Notes: generated by a model not told the origin, from the sequence alone. Counted from the stretch's first letter, positions 1 through 28,312 are shown. The stretch: DNA of 37,331 nt from an uncultured Candidatus Saccharibacteria bacterium (GCA_964609075.1 CAZSQP010000004.1:1-37331), one strand, 5' to 3'. Program-made: numbers and translations.

Positions 1-5
1 GATTT

Positions 6-31
6 CCACCTATTCTTTTAGGTGGTTTTTT
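6..31 (+). terminator. Rho-independent terminator of the gene lying upstream of the window
   Basis: ccacct (6-11) pairs with aggtgg (20-25), 8-nt loop, then T6 (26-31). Confidence 0.6.
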
Positions 32-39
32 GATAGAAT
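31..39 (+). promoter_or_regulatory. Extended -10-like element TGaTAGAAT
   Basis: TG-n-TAGAAT ends 8 nt before the ATG at 48. It follows the pattern seen at other operon starts in this window. Confidence 0.3.
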
Positions 40-47
40 AAAATATT

Positions 48-926
48 ATGAAGACATCATTTCACAGAATTAAAACAAAAGATCATTTAGAGCTCCACGG
101 ATTGCTTTATCAGCCAGACAATAAAACTGAGACTGTTTTAGCTCATGTTCATGGGATGGCTGGTAACTTCTACGAGAACAAATGGTTGGACCAAGTGGCA
201 AAAATTTTAACAGAAAACAATATAGCTTTTTGTCCTTTTAATAATCGTGGCAACGGGCATGTTACCACCCTTATTCAAAGAAAGGATGGAAAGATTAATT
301 ACCCTAAAATAGGAAATACTTACGAGAAGTTTGAGGATTGTCTTATGGATATAGAGGCTCATATTGATTTTTTAGAAGAAAAGGGCTTTAAAAATATACA
401 TTTGTCAGGTCACAGTTTGGGCGCTCCCAAGGTCGCCTATTACGCATCTAAAACAAAAGACAATAGGTTGAAGTCAGTTATCTTTCTTTCTCCTTCTGAT
501 ATGCTTGGTTTAGTTAGGGATGATATGGCAACTTTCAAAAGAGATATTACGGAGGCCGAGAAAAAGAAGAGAAGCGGGAAAGGAAATGAGCTAATGACTA
601 ACGATATCTGGGGAGAATGTCCAGTTTCAGCAGATACTTATTTAAGTCTCTTTAGTGAAAATTCTGAAGTAGCAATCTTCAGTTTTCACAAGCTCGATGA
701 TGAATTTAAAGCATTATCACAGATTCCCCATCCCATTTTTGCTTTAATGGGTAGGAAAGATGATGTTTTGGTTATTCCTATAGAGAAGATTATGAAAATA
801 ATAGAAAAAAAAGCGAAATCAAGTTTAAAATGCGAGACAGAGATCTTAGGAGATGCAGATCATGGATATAAGGGATATGAAAAAAAAGTCGCTAAAAGTA
901 TTTTGAATTGGCTTCAGAAATTTTAA
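48..926 (+). CDS. Alpha/beta-fold serine hydrolase
   Basis: 292-aa ORF. It has a GHSLG nucleophile elbow, a later acidic GRKDDV segment and a C-terminal GDADHGY, consistent with a Ser-Asp-His triad. Confidence 0.75.
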   Translation: MKTSFHRIKTKDHLELHGLLYQPDNKTETVLAHVHGMAGNFYENKWLDQVAKILTENNIAFCPFNNRGNGHVTTLIQRKDGKINYPKIGNTYEKFEDCLMDIEAHIDFLEEKGFKNIHLSGHSLGAPKVAYYASKTKDNRLKSVIFLSPSDMLGLVRDDMATFKRDITEAEKKKRSGKGNELMTNDIWGECPVSADTYLSLFSENSEVAIFSFHKLDDEFKALSQIPHPIFALMGRKDDVLVIPIEKIMKIIEKKAKSSLKCETEILGDADHGYKGYEKKVAKSILNWLQKF

Positions 927-931
927 ATTTC

Positions 932-968
932 TATCAAACAGGTTCTAATATCATCCAGTCCGTGTAGC
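932..968. repeat. Copy 1 of a 37-nt imperfect direct repeat (partner at 2304-2340)
   Basis: tatcaaacaggttctaatatcatccagtccgtgtagc. 31/37 identical to copy 2, and 5 of the 6 differences are transitions. It starts 6 nt after the hydrolase stop codon. Confidence 0.75.
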
Positions 969-1011
969 CAAGTTGTATGTTCAAACTGCTCTCGTAATAA
1001 GGACGGTTTTT

Positions 1012-1020
1012 TGGTAAAAT
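1012..1020 (+). promoter_or_regulatory. Extended -10 promoter element TGgTAAAAT (leaderless-type)
   Basis: TG-n-TAAAAT ends 6 nt before the ATG at 1027. Confidence 0.4.
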
Positions 1021-1026
1021 AAAAAT

Positions 1027-1881
1027 ATGGAAAAGATTGTTATTCCTAAACCAAAAAATGATTCTCTTTTAGCACAATTAGAATCTTTGTATAAAACTTT
1101 TGAGGGTATTAAATCAAGAAAAAATTTAATTTTTGATTTGTCTTTAATTGATTGGGCTTGTCCTCTATTAATATTACCAATAAGTGCATATGTTAATAGT
1201 ACCCAGAGCAGTTGCGAAATAGAAGGTTCACCCGTTAAGTCTTATTTAGAAAAAATAGTTTTTCCAAAAGGTGTAGATTCTCTCTCATTATTTCAGAGAA
1301 AAGTTCAAAGATATAAAAGTTTCATACCGATAAGTGTATTAAAAAAGGAGGCAGGGGCATCGAGAGAAAGATTGGAATCTTTATTTTCAGAAAAAATATA
1401 TGAAACGCTTGGCAATGTTTCAGGAGCGCGAAATGCGGTTTGTTATCCAATAGCGGAACTGGTAACCAATATATTTGAACATAGTAAAAAAGATACAGGG
1501 TTTATCTTTGGTCAATTTTATCCCACCAAGGGTTATCTGGATATCTGTATTGTGGATTATGGAAGGGGGTTTGCAAGGGCATATAAAGAGGAGAAAGGAG
1601 TAGAGCTGTCTGATAGTGAAGCAATTTCTGAAGCCATGAAGGGCAACTCAGTAAAACCAGAGAAAGAAAGAGGATATGGAATTTGGACATCAAAAAAGAT
1701 TATATGTAATGTTTTAAATGGAGGCGGGTTTATCTTGATATCAGGATCCTCTGGATTGATTGCGAAAAAGCAAGAAGAAAAATTAACTTCTTTTCCGGAG
1801 TTTTACTGGCAAGGAACGATTATCGCGTATAGAATACCAAAACCATCAGGGGCACTTGATATTTCTCCGTTTTTAGAGTAG
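1027..1881 (+). CDS. GHKL/HATPase-like ATP-binding protein (RsbW/SpoIIAB-like C-terminal half, unassigned N-terminal ~130 aa)
   Basis: 284-aa ORF. N-box-like ELVTNIFEHS, G1-like DYGRGF and G2-like ERGYGIW appear in the order expected for a Bergerat ATP-binding fold. I see no His-kinase dimerisation/phosphoacceptor region. Confidence 0.6.
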   Translation: MEKIVIPKPKNDSLLAQLESLYKTFEGIKSRKNLIFDLSLIDWACPLLILPISAYVNSTQSSCEIEGSPVKSYLEKIVFPKGVDSLSLFQRKVQRYKSFIPISVLKKEAGASRERLESLFSEKIYETLGNVSGARNAVCYPIAELVTNIFEHSKKDTGFIFGQFYPTKGYLDICIVDYGRGFARAYKEEKGVELSDSEAISEAMKGNSVKPEKERGYGIWTSKKIICNVLNGGGFILISGSSGLIAKKQEEKLTSFPEFYWQGTIIAYRIPKPSGALDISPFLE

Positions 1882-1934
1882 AATTATATGTCTGCATATC
1901 TTTTATTAATTATTGTGATATAATAAATAAAAAC

Positions 1935-2288
1935 ATGACCAGAAAGAAAACGCAAAAAAAATTAATTATTTCACATTTGTTAGCCTCGATTATAAGCTCT
2001 CGTGATGTGATTAATATATTGGAGAAAAACATTAAAAAAACCAATGCTAATTTAGTTATCTTGGATTTTTCCAATGTTAAATTTATTTCTCGTTCTGCTG
2101 CTCATGCTTTACTTTTAATGCGAGAGAAGTTGCAACCAAGAAAAGATATTTCCTTTGTGAATACCAATGAAGATGTATCAAACATGTTGCGTATTGTAGC
2201 AGCAAACAGAGCTGTTTCTAAAAAGAAAAAACCAGAATTTAAACCCAAGAAGACCAATATTAAATCTTTGTTTGAGTCCTTGGCTTAA
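1935..2288 (+). CDS. STAS-like domain protein (DUF4325-like)
   Basis: 117-aa ORF. The segment LVILDFSNVKFISRSAAHALL resembles the core of STAS-like/DUF4325 proteins. It sits directly downstream of the HATPase-like gene. Confidence 0.55.
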   Translation: MTRKKTQKKLIISHLLASIISSRDVINILEKNIKKTNANLVILDFSNVKFISRSAAHALLLMREKLQPRKDISFVNTNEDVSNMLRIVAANRAVSKKKKPEFKPKKTNIKSLFESLA

Positions 2289-2303
2289 AAGGTATTTATT
2301 TTT

Positions 2304-2340
2304 TATCAAATAGGTTCTAACATCGTCCAGTCCACGGAGC
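2304..2340. repeat. Copy 2 of the 37-nt imperfect direct repeat (partner at 932-968)
   Basis: tatcaaataggttctaacatcgtccagtccacggagc. It starts 16 nt after the stop codon of the STAS-like gene. Confidence 0.75.
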
Positions 2341-2367
2341 TGCTGTACACGTATATCTCAAAAACTT

Positions 2368-2397
2368 TTGACAAGACTATACAGATTTGTATATAAT
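2368..2397 (+). promoter_or_regulatory. Sigma70-like promoter TTGACA-N18-TATAAT
   Basis: ttgaca at 2368-2373 and tataat at 2392-2397. Confidence 0.4.
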
Positions 2398-2419
2398 GAA
2401 AGTACTATGATCACTGCTC

Positions 2420-2447
2420 CTGCCTTCGGGCAAGGGCAGTTTTTTTT
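2420..2447 (+). terminator. Rho-independent terminator
   Basis: ctgcctt (2420-2426) pairs with aagggcag (2432-2439; 7 bp including one G-U), 6-nt loop, then T8 (2440-2447). Confidence 0.6.
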
Positions 2448-2467
2448 ATGATATAATGAATATGTTT

Positions 2468-2476
2468 TGGTATAAT
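2468..2476 (+). promoter_or_regulatory. Extended -10 element TGgTATAAT
   Basis: TG-n-TATAAT lies 26 nt upstream of the ATG at 2503. A second TGaTATAAT sits at 2449-2457. Confidence 0.35.
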
Positions 2477-2502
2477 AATAAAATATAAATAATCATAAAT
2501 AT

Positions 2503-5109
2503 ATGAACAAAAAACTCCTAATATATATATTAATAGCTATTGTTATAGTTATTACTTTAGCTGTAGGAACATTTTTAATATTAAGAAATGGTAAGTCTTC
2601 AGGTGAGGAAAGCGCCAAAACAGGAGAAATTGAAATAGTTGATTATTCTCCCCAAAAAGGGCCTGCTGGCTCATCTGTTTTTTTAAAGCTTAATTCGGTT
2701 CCGGATCAGTTTAAAGTAATGTATAACAATAAAGAAATTGCTGTTGAAGGCATATCAGAAGATACTGTGAGAATAGCGACTCCCTATGATATCGGATCAG
2801 GAGATATTCAAGTCAAATCAGGGAATAATGTAAGCAATTCAGTTCGCTTTACAGTTGAAGAGATGGAATTATTAGAATTAGCTTCTGAAACAGTAAATCC
2901 TTCTTCAGAGAAGCAAACAATAAGTTATGGAGACAAGATTGAAGTAACCCTCTCTCCTGGTTTGCTAAAAGAGTCAAAAAAACTTACCATTTCAGAGGTT
3001 AAAAATGCTCCCTCCAGTTTTATCAGCGAACAGACGGAAACTTATTCATTTGATGTCTCCTTAGAAGGAATGGAACAGCTGGACGGATATGTTGAAATAG
3101 GAGTGAAGTACGATCCTAATCTTTTGGATCCTGACAAAAATACTGAAGATCAATTTGTAGCTATGCGCTGGGATGAAGATGAAAATTACTGGGTTACTCT
3201 CCCCACCAGAGTCGATAACCAAAACCAAACTCTCTATATGCTCACAGATCACTTAACAGGCTTTGAATGGGGTATAATAGGGGCAGCTGTTTTGATCAGC
3301 AAGCCTGTTACTTTAGCTGGTGAGAAGCTTCTTAACAATTCTTATGTAACCTCTCAAGGAAACTTTAAAATTCTTTACAGTAAAGACGCAATAGAAGAAG
3401 ATGTCTCTTTAAATGATGATTGGTGGACAAAAAAGACTTATCCTGATGCAGGCCGGATAGATTATAAGTCTAATTATCCCAAAGTTATACAAGATGTAGG
3501 CAGTCTTTTTGAAACAGCCTTAGCCAGTTATATTAATTTGGGCTTTGAAAATCCAGTTAAGATAAAGGAGGAGTGGATAGGTACGGAAACGTATAAAAAA
3601 CCTATTATAGTTAAAATAGATTCCTGGTGGCTAGCTGTTACCGGCGAGCCTAATTACGAAAAGATATGGCAGAGAATTCATATACCAAGTATAAGATTAA
3701 AAGACAAAGACCTCATGAAAGCGACAATAGGGCATGAGCTGTTTCACAGGATGCAGGCAGAATATTATGGCAGAACAGGCTTCTTAGCTCCCAGCAGAGC
3801 CTGGTGGATTGAAGCTACGGCAGAATATGCAGGTCATAATGTTGCCTGGCCAGATGATATACCGGGACTAAATAATCAGGTAGGAATAGATTTCTTGAAT
3901 CATTCTATTTCTACTAAAGGATTAATTGAAGGAAATGGATGGTCCGAAAAAAGATATGAATATGCTTCAGCTGTCTTTATAAAGTATTTAGTTGAAAATA
4001 AAAGTTTGAATTTCAGAGAAATGGTTGAATACGGAAAAGAAGGAAATATTATGGAAAGATTGGATTCTTTTATCAGAAGCAAAGGCGGAGATCTCCTGGG
4101 TTATTACAGAGATTTTGCTGCCTGGGCTGCTTTTTCAAGCAATTCCTTTTTAGCAAAATATCCTTTGGCTGTATTTGGGGATGATAATGCATCTGATATA
4201 GTCAGTAAGAAAAACAGCATATCTTTATCAGACAACCAATCTTCTCTTGATATTGAAATAAATTCAACTGACGGGCAAGATACATTTGTAAGCGTCTTTA
4301 AACTAGCGGGAAGAAGTCCAGAAATTCCTTCGCCCTTAGTCAACTTGTCAGTCTTGTCTGGATCTGATCAAACCTCAATTGATGCTGAGCCCGGAGATGT
4401 TATATATCTTCTAGCTGTAAAAGGAAGTGGTAACGACAAACCAGTGAATGCCTTTGTTAGGAACAAAGGAGAAGAAAAGGAAGGTGAGGTTAGGCATACA
4501 TTTAATTTAAAAGATGATTATTCAGCTGAAATATGGGCTGTGAAGATTGAAGGAGCTTTAAAGCTTACAGGGAAATTTATAGGAGGCATAGAAGGGATGG
4601 GATACGGCCAAGAAGTTTACAGAGTAGGAAATACACAATACAGAATAGATATTGAAGGAGGAGTTACATTGTACATAGATTCAAATTGTGAGCTCTGGTA
4701 TCATCCTGAAATAGAAGAGGAAGGATGTGTTTATGATATCAGTGGTTCTTCTGAAGGCTGGTATAATCTTTATTCAAGAGACAAAGTAACCCTAAGCTCT
4801 GGTGAAAGCTATTGGGAAGAGTGGGAGCTCCATCCTTATGGAGACGCAAAGCCGGATTTAGCAGGAGACAGCTTGGCAGGAGTTATCAATAGTCTGGAGA
4901 ATTCATACTATCAGGCAAAATTAAATGATTTTTACTTCTTAATCAGGCCTTCAAAAAATGAGCCGAATATAATAAACAGTTTTCAAGGAGAGTATGATCC
5001 TAGTACAAATAAGTTTTATGCCGAATCTTTTGTTAACGCTATTCCCGGCAAAGGAGTATATGTGAAATGGGAAAGCCAGCCAGTTGAGACTAATTTTAAA
5101 AAAGAATAG
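2503..5109 (+). CDS. Membrane-anchored extracellular protein with an IPT/TIG-like domain and an HEXXH...E gluzincin-like metalloprotease motif
   Basis: 868-aa ORF. It has an N-terminal hydrophobic anchor (LLIYILIAIVIVITLAVGTFLIL) and an IPT-like segment (IVDYSPQKGPAGSSVFLKLNS...IQVKSGNNVSNSVRFTV). HELFH is encoded at 3733-3747 and is followed 22 residues later by WWIEATAEY, which resembles the M1-type WLNEGFA. Confidence 0.6.
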   Translation: MNKKLLIYILIAIVIVITLAVGTFLILRNGKSSGEESAKTGEIEIVDYSPQKGPAGSSVFLKLNSVPDQFKVMYNNKEIAVEGISEDTVRIATPYDIGSGDIQVKSGNNVSNSVRFTVEEMELLELASETVNPSSEKQTISYGDKIEVTLSPGLLKESKKLTISEVKNAPSSFISEQTETYSFDVSLEGMEQLDGYVEIGVKYDPNLLDPDKNTEDQFVAMRWDEDENYWVTLPTRVDNQNQTLYMLTDHLTGFEWGIIGAAVLISKPVTLAGEKLLNNSYVTSQGNFKILYSKDAIEEDVSLNDDWWTKKTYPDAGRIDYKSNYPKVIQDVGSLFETALASYINLGFENPVKIKEEWIGTETYKKPIIVKIDSWWLAVTGEPNYEKIWQRIHIPSIRLKDKDLMKATIGHELFHRMQAEYYGRTGFLAPSRAWWIEATAEYAGHNVAWPDDIPGLNNQVGIDFLNHSISTKGLIEGNGWSEKRYEYASAVFIKYLVENKSLNFREMVEYGKEGNIMERLDSFIRSKGGDLLGYYRDFAAWAAFSSNSFLAKYPLAVFGDDNASDIVSKKNSISLSDNQSSLDIEINSTDGQDTFVSVFKLAGRSPEIPSPLVNLSVLSGSDQTSIDAEPGDVIYLLAVKGSGNDKPVNAFVRNKGEEKEGEVRHTFNLKDDYSAEIWAVKIEGALKLTGKFIGGIEGMGYGQEVYRVGNTQYRIDIEGGVTLYIDSNCELWYHPEIEEEGCVYDISGSSEGWYNLYSRDKVTLSSGESYWEEWELHPYGDAKPDLAGDSLAGVINSLENSYYQAKLNDFYFLIRPSKNEPNIINSFQGEYDPSTNKFYAESFVNAIPGKGVYVKWESQPVETNFKKE

Positions 5110-5391: not shown

Positions 5392-5420
5392 TTGACAGGG
5401 TTTTTTAAAAAATATAAACT
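5392..5420 (+). promoter_or_regulatory. Sigma70-like promoter TTGACA-N17-TAAACT
   Basis: ttgaca at 5392-5397, exactly 17 nt of spacer, taaact at 5415-5420. It lies in an otherwise featureless AT-rich gap just upstream of the GC-rich island. Confidence 0.5.
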
Positions 5421-5426
5421 AGTATA

Positions 5427-5653
5427 AGTTGTTCTTTAGATGTCTGCGCGGACGTGCTGTACCAGAGAGGGGTGACACAAGGTCCTAGTTAAGGGAAAGA
5501 ACATGGATCCGCCCAAGGGTCGTCACAAGGGACGCAAGGAGAGTCACAGCGACCACGCGAACGAAGACGAAGCCCTCGAGCCCGACTAGCCAACACCGGC
5601 AACCAGCTCGAGAGAGTATGCGCCCCATTGATAAAAAATGGGGCGCTTTTTTT
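5427..5653 (+). ncRNA. Unclassified GC-rich structured-RNA candidate (alternatively a 5' leader/riboswitch-like element of tspO)
   Basis: Hand count gives 106/180 G+C for 5441-5620, against 10-25 % in flanking 60-nt blocks. It is bounded by a promoter and a perfect terminator hairpin. Internal helices: 5430-5437/5496-5503, 5450-5456/5476-5485, 5575-5581/5606-5612. The longest ORF is 28 aa. Confidence 0.5.
5620..5653 (+). terminator. Strong Rho-independent terminator
   Basis: gcgccccatt (5620-5629) pairs perfectly with aatggggcgc (5637-5646), 7-nt loop, then T7 (5647-5653). Confidence 0.8.
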
Positions 5654-5665
5654 ATTTTAATCTTA

Positions 5666-5678: not shown

Positions 5679-6155
5679 TTGATGAAGTTAAATTATATTA
5701 CAATACCTTTGATCGTCATATTGGTTTCTTTAACGGGAAGCTATTTTACCTCTTTAGGAATGAGTTGGTATGATACTCTGACTCTTCCTTCATTTACTCC
5801 TCCAGGATATTTTATAGGAGCTGTTTGGACTGTTATCTTTATACTTACAGCAATATCTGCTCTTATTTTCTGGAATAAAAGGGAAGAGTTTAAAAGAAAG
5901 AAACTGATTATTGTTTTCTTTTTAATTAACGCCTTTTTGAATATCTTCTGGAGCTTTCTATTCTTTACTTCTCATTTAATAGGGCTGGCTTTAATTGAAG
6001 CTGTCCTTCTTGAGATATCCGTTATATCCTTAATGATTCTTCTTTATCCTAAGTCTAAAACAGCTTCAGCTCTTTTGATTCCTTACAGCGCCTGGACATT
6101 ATTCGCTATTTATTTAAATTATTTAATCTTTTCTTTAAATGTCTCAATACTATAA
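5679..6155 (+). CDS. tspO: TspO/MBR family tryptophan-rich sensory protein
   Basis: 158-aa ORF with five hydrophobic segments and WYDTLTLPSFTPPGYFIGAVWTVIF, typical of TspO. The real start is probably the ATG at 5682. Confidence 0.8.
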   Translation: MMKLNYITIPLIVILVSLTGSYFTSLGMSWYDTLTLPSFTPPGYFIGAVWTVIFILTAISALIFWNKREEFKRKKLIIVFFLINAFLNIFWSFLFFTSHLIGLALIEAVLLEISVISLMILLYPKSKTASALLIPYSAWTLFAIYLNYLIFSLNVSIL

Positions 6156-6903
6156 TCCAAAAAGAACCTCTAATTTATTTGATCCTGATTCAAGAGAGCC
6201 TTTTAGGCTTAGTCGCTCTAAGATAGATTTATTCTTGGAGTGTCCAAGATGTTTTTATCTGGATAGAAGATTAGGTATAGCTCGTCCTCCGGGATATCCT
6301 TTCAGCTTGAACAGTGCTGTAGATAAGCTTTTGAAAAAAGAGTTTGATTCTCATAGAGCAGAAGGATCTTCTCATCCTTTGATGGAAGAATATGGTATTG
6401 ATGCTGTTCCTTTTCAGCACGAAAATATGGAAGAATGGCGTGATAACAGAAAAGGAGTTCGCTATCTTCATAGAAAGGCCAATCTTCTTTTAACAGGAGC
6501 TGTAGATGATATTTGGGTAAATCCTAAAGGCGAGCTTCTGGTTATAGAGTATAAGGCGACATCCAAGAATGGAGAGGTTTCTCTTGATGCTGATTGGCAG
6601 ATAAGTTACAAGAGACAGGTAGAGTTTTATCAGTGGCTTTTAAGAAGGAACGGTTTTCAGGTTTCAGACGACAGTTATTTTGTCTATTGTAACGGGAATA
6701 CAGATCTAGAAGCTTTTGACAAGAAGATAGAGTTTGATATTAAAGTTATTCCGTATAAGGGTAGTGATAACTGGGTGGAGGATGCTGTTCTAGAAGCTAA
6801 AGAATGCCTTATGGGAGATGAAATACCCAAAGCCTCTGAAGATTGTGACTTCTGTGCCTATAGAAAAGAGACTTCTAATGTGGAAAACTCCCTTTCTTTC
6901 TAA
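6139..6903 (+). CDS. PD-(D/E)XK nuclease, Cas4/RecB-like with four Cys
   Basis: 254-aa ORF. GAVDDIW...LLVIEYKAT gives a D...E-x-K catalytic motif. Cys pairs occur as CPRC near the N-terminus and CDFC near the C-terminus. Confidence 0.65.
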   Translation: MSQYYNPKRTSNLFDPDSREPFRLSRSKIDLFLECPRCFYLDRRLGIARPPGYPFSLNSAVDKLLKKEFDSHRAEGSSHPLMEEYGIDAVPFQHENMEEWRDNRKGVRYLHRKANLLLTGAVDDIWVNPKGELLVIEYKATSKNGEVSLDADWQISYKRQVEFYQWLLRRNGFQVSDDSYFVYCNGNTDLEAFDKKIEFDIKVIPYKGSDNWVEDAVLEAKECLMGDEIPKASEDCDFCAYRKETSNVENSLSF

Positions 6904-6955: not shown

Positions 6956-7165
6956 ATGAAAGCTTTAAAAATTATTTCTCTAGTATTAGTTATTATCGGA
7001 GGTTTGAACTGGGGTTTAGTCGGCCTGCTTAATTTTGATTTGGTAGCTGCTATCTTTGGATCAATGTCTGTTATTTCAAGAGTAGTTTATGTTCTTGTAG
7101 GTTTGGCAGCCCTGGTTATGATCCTTGTTTCTCTTAAGAAAGAGAACAAAGGAGTTGAGGCCTAA
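6956..7165 (+). CDS. DUF378-type small membrane protein
   Basis: 69-aa ORF with two hydrophobic helices and IGGLNWGLVGLLNFDLV, characteristic of DUF378. Confidence 0.65.
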   Translation: MKALKIISLVLVIIGGLNWGLVGLLNFDLVAAIFGSMSVISRVVYVLVGLAALVMILVSLKKENKGVEA

Positions 7166-27669: not shown

Positions 27670-27999
27670 ATGTCTTACAAAGTAAATAAAGAAAAATGTT
27701 TAGGTGTTAAAAACTGTGGTGTTTGTATCCAGAGTTGTCCCGGTGCTACAAAAGAGGGAAGCGACGGAAAAGCTGAAGTTGCAGACCAGGAAAAACTAGA
27801 GCAATGCGGAGGAGAAAGTGTCTGTCCTATGGGGGCTATAGAAAAGGCGGATGGAGATTCTCAGCCTCAAGCAGAAAGACAAGCTCAGCCTCCTTTCCCT
27901 GGGCAAGGTAGAGGAATGGGAGCTGGCAGAGGAAGGGGTCTTGGTAGAGGACCCAGAGACGGCAGAGGAAGAGGAATGGGTGGGGGCGGAAGAAGATAA
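27670..27999 (+). CDS. Ferredoxin-like 4Fe-4S protein with a 35-aa Gly/Arg-rich C-terminal tail
   Basis: 109-aa ORF with CGVCIQSCP and CGGESVCP. The tail is PFPGQGRGMGAGRGRGLGRGPRDGRGRGMGGGGRR. Confidence 0.7.
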   Translation: MSYKVNKEKCLGVKNCGVCIQSCPGATKEGSDGKAEVADQEKLEQCGGESVCPMGAIEKADGDSQPQAERQAQPPFPGQGRGMGAGRGRGLGRGPRDGRGRGMGGGGRR

Positions 28000-28000
28000 A

Positions 28001-28312
28001 ATGATTGAAATTACCGGTCAAAACTTTGAAGAGGTAATAAATTCAAAAGAGCCTGTTTTGATTGACTTTTGGAGTCCAGGTTGTCCTCCTTGTGAAATGA
28101 TAGCTCCTATTATTGAAGAAATTGATAAAGAGTTTAAAGAAAAAGTGAAAGTAGGAAAAGTTAATGTCAGAGAGAATCCTGATTTAGCTCAGAAATATGA
28201 AATTATGGGAGTGCCTACTTTGATTATTTTTAAAGAAGCAGAGCTGAAAGAGAGGGCAACAGGACTTCGCTCTAAAGAGGTTATTGAGAATAAATTAAAA
28301 TCATTGTTATAA
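28001..28312 (+). CDS. trxA: Thioredoxin
   Basis: MIEITGQNFEEVI...DFWSPGCPPCEMIAP...GVPTLIIF. The track ORF opens at 27851, but that stretch is an alternate frame of the Gly/Arg tail. Confidence 0.85.
   Translation: MIEITGQNFEEVINSKEPVLIDFWSPGCPPCEMIAPIIEEIDKEFKEKVKVGKVNVRENPDLAQKYEIMGVPTLIIFKEAELKERATGLRSKEVIENKLKSLL

Follow-up and report, generated by a model that had tools for sequence, protein, structure and literature searches.

The window analysed here, i.e. the whole stretch of 37,331 nucleotides from an uncultured Candidatus Saccharibacteria bacterium (CAZSQP010000004.1), contains near its start two copies of an imperfect 37-nt direct repeat, which enclose a gene pair encoding a GHKL-type ATPase and a STAS-domain protein (the GHKL-STAS pair). 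We consider it likely that these 37-mers are diverged attR-type junctions of small cargo cassettes that, in Parcubacteria, integrate where tRNA genes have their 3' ends. On this reading, the window contains the outermost part of an old array of cassettes, one of which is the GHKL-STAS pair. The anatomy of the junctions, their organization in arrays, their linkage to tRNA genes, and the duplication of tRNA ends together with the adjacent flank were all observed directly in metagenome contigs and in loci that contain relatives of the pair. The window has a G+C content of about 34%, and the homologues of its proteins are found in Parcubacteria/Paceibacteria and other Patescibacteria.

Junction motifs, cassette arrays and tRNA genes

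The two copies of the repeat (TATCAAACAGGTTCTAATATCATCCAGTCCGTGTAGC at 932-968 and TATCAAATAGGTTCTAACATCGTCCAGTCCACGGAGC at 2304-2340) are identical at 31 of 37 positions, and five of the six differences (C/T, T/C, A/G, G/A, T/C, T/G) are transitions. Both copies are non-coding, and each is located 3' of an unrelated gene, the first starting 6 nt past the TAA stop codon at 924-926 and the second 16 nt past the TAA at 2286-2288. The ungapped repeat reaches from 908 to 968 and from 2280 to 2340 at 77% identity, and a weaker similarity on the 3' side of the two copies runs on to a common TCAAA(AA)C box. A search with a 30-mer pattern allowing for up to three mismatches retrieved exactly two sites in the 37,331 bases, with none expected from 100 shuffles. 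A profile model (nhmmer) built from 137 metagenome copies matched both sites (E values of 6.7e-9 for copy 1 and 9.3e-12 for copy 2), and neither method found a third copy in the window, including its remaining 35 kb. The repeat is thus as the preliminary description of this sequence had portrayed it with respect to its identity, the five transitions, its position 6 and 16 nt after stop codons, and the two genes enclosed.

Scanning of metagenome contigs for AYAGGTTCTAAYRNCRTCCAG, a pattern to which copy 2 is an exact match, detected the motif in at least 120 contigs, for which we estimate a chance expectation of a few tens of contigs at most. The 137 distinct copies share a conserved, T-arm-like head of 23 nt, AAACAGGTTCTAACATCGTCCAG, which is followed by the less conserved (T/C)CCCGGAGC. 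In several contigs the copies form co-oriented arrays, for example eight copies within 5.9 kb in L104, four each in L070 and L079, and three in L088. All array copies are co-oriented with the genes, and one or few small unrelated genes are located between them. In 122 of 150 copies a co-oriented open reading frame (ORF) of at least 50 aa ends within 150 nt upstream, with a median distance between stop codon and motif of about 41 nt. The cargo is varied and includes a methyltransferase, a hemerythrin-like protein, a reductase, a HIT protein and small membrane proteins. None of the at least 120 motif contigs listed encodes a GHKL or STAS protein; the candidate explanation of an element private to the pair, for which the motif following the STAS gene in several relatives had spoken, was therefore rejected. 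The preliminary description had held that common dispersal of the 37-mer would speak against its interpretation. The 37-mer is indeed commonly dispersed, and a footprint specific to this one cassette has to be given up; the notion of an att-like duplication, on the other hand, is retained, because the dispersal is that of a junction sequence shared by a family of tRNA-targeted cassettes with many cargoes.

An all-against-all comparison of the units detected common sequence to the right of the head in 125 pairs and to the left of it in only 6 pairs. The left boundary of similarity piles up at positions -2 to 0 of the head, and the head is followed by the same flank families behind differing cargo. 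The similarity on the right but not on the left indicates that the head marks the edge between variable cargo (left) and conserved flank families (right).

Intact tRNA genes are found on one side of the motif almost exclusively. Within 2.5 kb of the first motif, 15 intact co-oriented tRNA genes are located upstream and only one downstream, with none on the other strand, although similar amounts of sequence were searched on each side. These are genes for tRNA-Asn (seven), tRNA-Gln (four), tRNA-His (two), tRNA-Ser and tRNA-Arg, and those for Asn, Gln and His lie 0.3-2.1 kb upstream of the motif. The tails of the junctions correspond to such tRNAs: CCCCGGAGC and CCGCGGAGC are the 3' acceptor strands of tRNA-Asn/Gln, and the strand of tRNA-His is present in other copies. 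In addition, the ends of intact tRNA genes recur at a distance together with their flanks. In L083, a segment made up of the final 17 nt of tRNA-His and the adjoining 85 nt of flank recurs after a head 2.09 kb away (score 103), and in L107 the segment from -4 relative to the end of tRNA-Asn to +53 nt recurs 1.8 kb away (score 79). What natively follows tRNA-Asn is the family 2 tail in L156 and the family 1 tail in L119.

Similar duplications are found around relatives of the GHKL-STAS pair itself. Each relative has other genes beside the pair, even where the GHKL proteins are 75-83% identical; examples are MacB/PD-(D/E)XK genes, rplJ-rplL, a tRNA cluster with Fic, dnaX, and a series of unknown small genes. 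When the 300 nt upstream of the GHKL gene were aligned to the 500 nt downstream of the STAS gene (score of at least 48), flanking direct repeats were detected in 15 of 46 non-redundant loci. Control positions with this geometry, taken from these loci as well, showed such repeats in 8 of 1799 cases, and the excess around the pair is thus about 75-fold. The repeated sequence differs by genome. The pair is located between an intact tRNA and a copy of the end or flank of this tRNA in L005 (His), L014 (Met), L024 (Asp) and L042 (Glu), the duplicated segment extending from -7 to +56 relative to the tRNA end in L005, from -14 to +37 in L014 and from -9 to +31 in L042. In L005 the order is tRNA-His, pair, pseudo-copy, Fic, pseudo-copy. 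In L003, L007 and L017 it is the 3' part of the rplL coding sequence that is repeated, and in L011 the repeat comprises 158 nt, in which the 3' end of a gene for an S1-domain protein is joined by the associated terminator and promoter. The junction anatomy and the duplications of tRNA ends bear out the suggestion of an att-like duplication around an inserted two-gene cassette, which had been made from the window alone.

We propose the following mechanism for the formation of these structures. The head would be derived from the element and mimic the T-arm of a tRNA, and the tail would stem from the target tRNA, whose 3' acceptor strand was displaced. After the tail would come the original downstream sequence of this tRNA, usually a terminator plus a TGGTAnAAT promoter reading into the next gene. 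Recombination would be site-specific and of the tyrosine- or serine-integrase type, with a crossover in or just after the T-loop and with the head serving as the recombinase-binding arm. Repeated integration at one tRNA would push older cassettes outward, resulting in an array of the order tRNA, cargo 1, junction, cargo 2, junction. Applied to the window, this would give a tRNA or junction off the contig, a hydrolase gene, junction 1, the GHKL-STAS pair, junction 2 with the native flank, and the chromosome. As the pair comes without a recombinase, the cassette either has become fixed or would have to be moved by an enzyme whose gene is located elsewhere.

Several observations weigh against this interpretation. 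No recombinase was found in any junction-bounded cassette or between a tRNA and the first junction, and only three tyrosine-recombinase matches (L035, L175, L041) were obtained in about 1.4 Mb of loci, which is a weak negative as most of the contigs are short. ARAGORN called no intact tRNA in the window, and the anchoring tRNA would thus have to be located beyond the contig start. The two copies in the window have diverged from each other, and their tails mismatch every tRNA seen; the cassettes of the window may be old and fixed. In L003 and L011, the duplicated segment is the 3' end of a protein gene without a head, and more than one mechanism or element family, or plain homologous recombination, may be at work. 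A search for empty sites (tblastn with the proteins flanking the pair in the window against all fetched loci) revealed no orthologous arrangement, and no excised circle was observed. Finally, the pair is well conserved (52-83% identity), and in Bacteroidota the GHKL gene and a putative partner are found in ordinary-looking contexts, which fits a cellular regulator as well as mobile cargo.

A more far-reaching version of the cassette model, to which we give a clearly lower probability and which we regard as rather unlikely, is an integron-like capture platform on tRNA genes in Parcubacteria and perhaps other Patescibacteria, served by one recombinase encoded elsewhere, with the GHKL-STAS pair as one of the most successful cargoes or even as a helper. 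The recombinase of such a platform would recognise the 23-nt head together with the T-arm/acceptor end of tRNA-Asn, -Gln or -His, and would line up in arrays mini-cassettes that lack an integrase and hold one to three genes along with a terminator and a promoter of their own.

Some further features were noted in the loci described above. A group I intron (Rfam, 61 bits), a LAGLIDADG ORF, a tRNA and dnaX are present a few kb upstream of the four-copy array of L070 (coordinates of these side features are 3224-3448 and 5962-6672, both on the minus strand). In L035 (98-4995), which belongs to a metagenome-assembled genome of Patescibacteria and is the only locus with a tyrosine integrase gene beside the pair, the pair comes directly after this gene (2060-3031), and the block is delimited on either side by an IS200-type Y1 transposase gene (98-553 and 4555-4995). 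Beside tRNA genes in L005 (4125-4205), L170 (3040-3140) and L077 (165-240), short tandem repeats of about 30-45 nt are found; in L005 the sequence GGCGTGCCAATGGCCTCCTTCGCTAAAGCTAC is repeated two to three times.

Alternative explanations for the repeats

The architecture described above could also have been generated by RecA-dependent, Campbell-type homologous recombination of circular or concatemeric DNA after natural transformation, in which case no dedicated recombinase would be involved. The duplications are long and variable (32-158 nt) and include 3' ends of protein genes (rplL) without a head, the cassettes are devoid of an integrase, and a flank homology of 50-100 nt would suffice for RecA. 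However, the 23-nt head is near-invariant across targets (Asn, Gln, His) and cargoes, which argues for a sequence-specific protein site, and the left boundary of similarity is sharp; in addition, a parallel case in Dehalococcoides has a dedicated integrase (PMC3146451). We thus consider homologous recombination as the sole mechanism improbable. Even less probable is an integron-like origin, according to which the motif would represent the left half (R''-L'') of attC sites, the arrays would be cassette arrays or clusters of attC sites lacking integron integrases (CALINs), and the pair would have been moved by an IntI-type integrase. Co-oriented arrays with one site per small cargo gene are in agreement with this explanation, and so is the TTCTAAC of the head, which is near the attC R'' consensus RYYYAAC. 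An inverted partner (GGACGTTAGAAC, GTTCGAACTTGT) is present 62-87 nt downstream in about 10% of the units, and 12 units reach a score of at least 18 for this partner compared with 2 in the upstream control. Yet about 90% of the units are without an R'-like box, GTTnnAAC is no commoner downstream than upstream, and the site is tied to the downstream flank and not to the upstream ORF (125 versus 6 pairs), which is the opposite of attC. Terminator and promoter are also part of the units, the tails consist of tRNA 3' ends, the arrays are anchored by intact tRNAs, and the units fold no better than shuffled sequences. No IntI was detected near the arrays by Pfam or by tblastn with an IntI1 sequence, in contigs that are short. 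Taken together, an integron-like origin is the explanation to which we give the least credence.

If the motif were a dispersed intergenic element, for example of the miniature inverted-repeat transposable element (MITE) or repetitive extragenic palindrome (REP) type, or a 3'-untranslated region or operator motif, the two copies would be uninformative on the arrival of the pair. Such an element would be consistent with the wide distribution of the motif on contigs not encoding the pair, with its constant sense orientation and its placement past a stop codon and ahead of a terminator/promoter, and with the MITE-like terminal inverted repeats of the family-2 units (about 118 nt). It would leave unexplained, however, the 15:1 upstream bias of tRNAs, the tails that copy tRNAs, the duplicated tRNA flanks and the excess of flanking repeats around the pair; moreover, there is no target-site duplication at the edges of the units, inverted ends are restricted to about 10% of the units, no Rfam match was obtained, and folding is no better than that of shuffled sequences. 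We regard this explanation as very improbable, though not quite to the same degree as the integron. Several more specific identities were rejected. For a MITE or REP sequence, the inverted ends are found in family 2 only, duplications at the edges are absent, the copies are co-oriented, and the folding z-scores are 0.33 and 1.2. A structured RNA or riboswitch is contradicted by folding like shuffled sequences and by the loss in arrays of the GGTTC/GAGCC stem of some copies, and there was no Rfam match: Rfam 15 gave no match at gathering score in the window, nothing relevant at E values up to 10 around the repeats, and nothing relevant in the array loci. A small ORF or gene remnant was suggested by conservative changes in both frames, but no ORF of at least 20 codons in a shared frame exists across the copies. 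The variable and template repeats (VR/TR) of a diversity-generating retroelement were dismissed as the differences are not confined to adenines and the copies are non-coding and follow unrelated genes. Lastly, no tRNA gene or pseudogene was called in the window by ARAGORN.

The window and its probable GHKL-STAS cargo

The features of the window up to the first gene past the last recognisable junction are, in order:

1-47, plus strand (start of the contig): apparent right portion of an earlier junction unit, with a terminator hairpin (6-25), a T-run, an extended -10-like sequence TGATAGAAT (31-39), and an ATG at 48
48-926, plus strand: alpha/beta-hydrolase gene, 292 aa (Pfam DUF1749, Hydrolase_4, Abhydrolase_1)
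932-970, plus strand: junction copy 1, with the head AAACAGGTTCTAATATCATCCAG (936-958) and the pseudo-tRNA acceptor-strand tail TCCGTGTAGCCA (959-970)
971-1026, plus strand: rest of unit 1, with a degenerate inverted box GTTCAAAC (979-986) and GGACGG plus a T-run (1001-1012)
1012-1020, plus strand: extended -10 sequence TGGTAAAAT, ending 6 nt before the ATG of the GHKL gene
1027-1881, plus strand: GHKL (Bergerat-fold) ATPase or Ser-kinase-like protein, 284 aa (Pfam, alignment, AlphaFold, Foldseek)
1882-1934, plus strand: spacer between GHKL and STAS genes, with an extended -10-like sequence TGTGATATAAT immediately 5' of the STAS start codon
1935-2288, plus strand: STAS-domain protein, 117 aa (Pfam STAS above cut-off)
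2304-2342, plus strand: junction copy 2, with the head AAATAGGTTCTAACATCGTCCAG (2308-2330) and the pseudo-tRNA tail TCCACGGAGCTG (2331-2342)
2343-2447, plus strand: flank carried with junction 2 (family 3 tail), with a promoter followed by a hairpin transcript or terminator
2503-5109, plus strand: secreted or membrane-anchored protein, 868 aa, with an HExxH motif (weak collagenase M9 and TIG matches); first gene past the last recognisable junction

The layout of positions 1-47 matches that of 1001-1026, and a terminator near-identical to 6-25 (CCACCTATTTATTTAGGTGG) comes after a motif copy in L087. The contig thus probably broke at a repeat copy just upstream of position 1, and a motif or tRNA would be located beyond its start. 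The hydrolase gene, the cargo upstream of junction 1, is probably itself a cassette because a junction comes after it, as is the case for the cargo genes of arrays. The tail of junction 1 resembles the 3' strand of tRNA-Asn, CCGCGGAGCCA. The extended -10 sequence at 1012-1020 suggests a leaderless-type promoter for the GHKL gene, and the arrangement of a hairpin, TTTTTTGGTAnAAT and ATG is also found 5' of the GHKL gene in L001, L003, L005, L011, L020 and L022. A box like TGTGATATAAT is present in L001 and L003 as well, and the STAS gene may thus have a promoter of its own.

In the flank carried with junction 2, a perfect sigma-70-type promoter (TTGACA-18-TATAAT) at 2368-2397 is followed by a short hairpin (stem 2413-2440, then T8; folding z-score -3.5). 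This module of promoter and hairpin is present in nine loci (outside the window in L013, L057, L065, L076, L105, L160, L163 and L177), and in six of the nine it is located directly 3' of a motif copy. Within about 15 nt past the promoter a conserved transcript of about 40 nt would begin, ACTATGAnCACT...CCTGC(C)TTCG(G)GCAAGGG...T-run, which is essentially a UUCG-loop hairpin terminator, and in the window the stem is kept by a paired C/G insertion. A role as tiny RNA, attenuator or insulator is conceivable for this element (2368-2447).

Farther downstream, TspO and DUF378 proteins are encoded in the window (5679-6155 and 6956-7165), and their homologues are located directly 3' of motif copies in L133 and L132; the first 7 kb or so of the window may represent an older part of the same array, the junctions of which have decayed. 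The gap of 570 nt between the gene for the 868-aa protein and TspO contains a stretch (5392-5655; 232 nt at 53% G+C in a genome of 34% G+C) that is preceded by a promoter-like site (TTGACA...TAAACT) and ends with a strong terminator (5620-5646). As this stretch has no match in Rfam even at an E value of 1, no ORF, and no copy in the fetched loci, it may be an unrecognised RNA gene. The 3' end (27907-28002) of an ORF at 27670-27999 encodes Arg-Gly-rich repeats, GRGMGAGRGRGLGRGPRDGRGRGMGGGGRR, seen as a 36-nt tandem repeat. Nearly all real-looking ORFs of at least 90 aa are on the plus strand and GC skew is positive throughout the window; the whole contig is on one replichore with a strong gene-strand bias.

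The GHKL protein consists of a separate N-terminal alpha/beta domain of about 125 aa and a GHKL domain at about residues 130-284. It matches HATPase_c_2 at an E value of 1e-4, just under the Pfam cut-off, and PF02518 is recorded on several of its homologues. The N, G1 and G2 boxes (ExxxN, DxGxG and GxG; E144/N148, D177-G179-G181 and G216-G218) are invariant in 17 homologues. A Foldseek search with the whole AlphaFold model (predicted local distance difference test, pLDDT, of 87.9) retrieved only the ATPase domains of Hsp90 and GyrB, with weak scores under the usual significance, and a sequence search of the PDB with the GHKL profile gave no match. The N-terminal domain has no match in Pfam. 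In a profile-profile comparison of this domain with the STAS partner, FDLSxLxW and LDFSxVKF are in register, at an E value of only 0.006 and a probability of 6%, and the domain is possibly STAS-like. The product of 1935-2288 is recognised by the Pfam STAS model (PF01740) with 25.4 bits versus a cut-off of 22.6, and DUF4325 matches it only at an E value of 0.071. We found 79 homologues of this protein, in the alignment of which the motifs F-[IV]-S-R-S-A-A-H and R-[IV]-V-A-A-N, including S52, R53 and S54, are invariant. The HATPase/GHKL and STAS folds proposed in the preliminary description are hence supported by Pfam, the invariant boxes and the weak Foldseek matches.

Whether the two genes travel as a pair had been left as a question, and the answer is clear: the STAS gene is located directly 3' of the GHKL gene in 56 of 56 related loci. 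The GHKL homologues are uniform in length and sequence (280-286 aa, 52-83% identity), and a profile search with the GHKL protein retrieved 210 cluster representatives at E values below 1e-30. Some of these matches are Bacteroidota proteins of about 300 aa whose next gene encodes 119-125 aa (two relatives checked) and was likened to the STAS gene by size and position. The Bacteroidota relatives adjoin dnaX or type IV pilus genes; in L183 dnaX is directly upstream of the relative, and in L059 it is near the pair. A part distantly related to the full-length GHKL protein, N-terminal domain and ATPase included, was also noted at the C-terminus of large proteins annotated at JGI as RecQ-type superfamily II helicases (P0351 with 1370 aa; P0260 and P0350 with 1266-1376 aa).

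In their basic composition, i.e. a GHKL protein with N, G1 and G2 boxes beside a small single-domain STAS protein, the two proteins are similar to RsbW/RsbV and SpoIIAB/SpoIIAA, and relatives are labelled at JGI as 'anti-sigma regulatory factor (Ser/Thr protein kinase)' and 'anti-anti-sigma regulatory factor'. In contrast to these known pairs, the gene order here is kinase then STAS, the kinase has an extra N-terminal domain of about 125 aa, and there is no linked sigma factor or PP2C phosphatase. The latter had been noticed before for the window and also holds for the inspected neighbourhoods of relatives, none of which has a sigma factor or PP2C gene beside the pair. Profile scores against RsbW and SpoIIAA models are far under the cut-offs. 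In a manual alignment with the DSSG motif of SpoIIAA, the canonical phospho-serine position is occupied by the invariant R53, located between the two invariant residues S52 and S54. Judging from fold and gene linkage, an RsbW/RsbV-like switch by binding or phosphorylation is most likely as the most economical reading of the pair. The invariant S52-R53-S54 would then mark the region of the STAS protein to which the GHKL domain binds and which it perhaps phosphorylates.

The pair had also been suspected to be a self-contained conflict module, and self-containment fails, as no recombinase is present between the junctions. An anti-phage or other conflict function instead of a partner-switching regulator of the housekeeping type is doubtful in our view, although the context of the pair as cargo, a local similarity to DrmA, and the helicase fusions hint at a possible conflict role. 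The pair is cargo in variable, junction-bounded cassettes near Fic and SocA/Panacea-type genes, and its distribution appears patchy, with about 50 loci among 185,579 species genomes using strict search patterns. PADLOC reported a local match to the DrmA model (E value of 1.6e-7) near the N-terminus of this model (positions 101-243 of 1750), which falls on the ATPase region of the GHKL protein, besides a weak match to PDC-M65A (PADLOC-DB 2.0); other DISARM genes are not present. RecQ-like superfamily II helicase fusions are found in distant relatives (P0351, P0260). On the other hand, the pair matches no described defence system in PADLOC-DB 2.0, no nuclease or other effector is linked to it, the length and sequence of the GHKL protein are very uniform, and the Bacteroidota relatives are located beside dnaX or type IV pilus genes. 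No relative is found on viral contigs in IMG/VR either, and viral carriage of the pair was rejected on these grounds.

Comparison with known islands

Patescibacteria have tiny genomes with few recognisable mobile elements, and their gain of accessory genes is poorly understood. Searching for the junction motif is a simple route to the variable gene pool of these bacteria in metagenomes. The motif accounts for contig breaks such as the one at the start of the window, it points to a recombinase, and it flags the GHKL-STAS pair as a two-gene module widely shared in Patescibacteria.

Among the systems described so far, the ssrA islands of Dehalococcoides are the closest parallel. These islands are arranged in tandem downstream of a tRNA-like gene, and short direct repeats of its 3' end mark the boundaries of each island (PMC3146451). 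An element-derived conserved motif, which does not align with the gene, is located just upstream of each repeat, and the crossover was therefore placed in the T-loop (PMC3146451). The islands are 10-30 kb in size, and 16 of them have an integration module with a serine recombinase; some are without such a module and are considered to be cis-mobilizable by accretion (PMC3146451). The units reported here are much smaller in comparison (0.3-2 kb with one to three cargo genes), no recombinase was found, and several tRNAs (Asn, Gln, His and others) serve as targets, in Patescibacteria.

Tycheposons of Prochlorococcus are likewise found in streamlined genomes, where they are located at specific tRNAs with partial tRNAs on both sides and contain plug-in cargo, and successive integrations move older elements further into the island (bioRxiv 10.1101/2020.12.28.424599). 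Their defining features are a tyrosine (or large serine) recombinase that faces inward and genes for replication (bioRxiv 10.1101/2020.12.28.424599). In contrast to tycheposons, recombinase and replication genes were not found here, and the 23-nt head is particular to this cassette family.

With integron arrays the cassettes share their co-orientation, the small and mostly uncharacterised cargo, the presence of one conserved site each, and the lack of a recombinase in the cassettes themselves. In contrast to integrons, most units are without the R' palindrome, the site is linked to the flank downstream of it and includes the 3' end of a tRNA, the units have their own terminator and promoter, and neither IntI nor attI was found. 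Literature searches on integrons or attC sites in Patescibacteria or Parcubacteria, and on DUF4325, yielded nothing relevant.

The principle of tRNA-targeted islands with partial-tRNA repeats that grow by accretion is thus already known from other bacteria. New compared with these systems are the very small, integrase-less cassettes that carry promoters, the 23-nt head in Patescibacteria, and the recurrent GHKL-STAS cargo.

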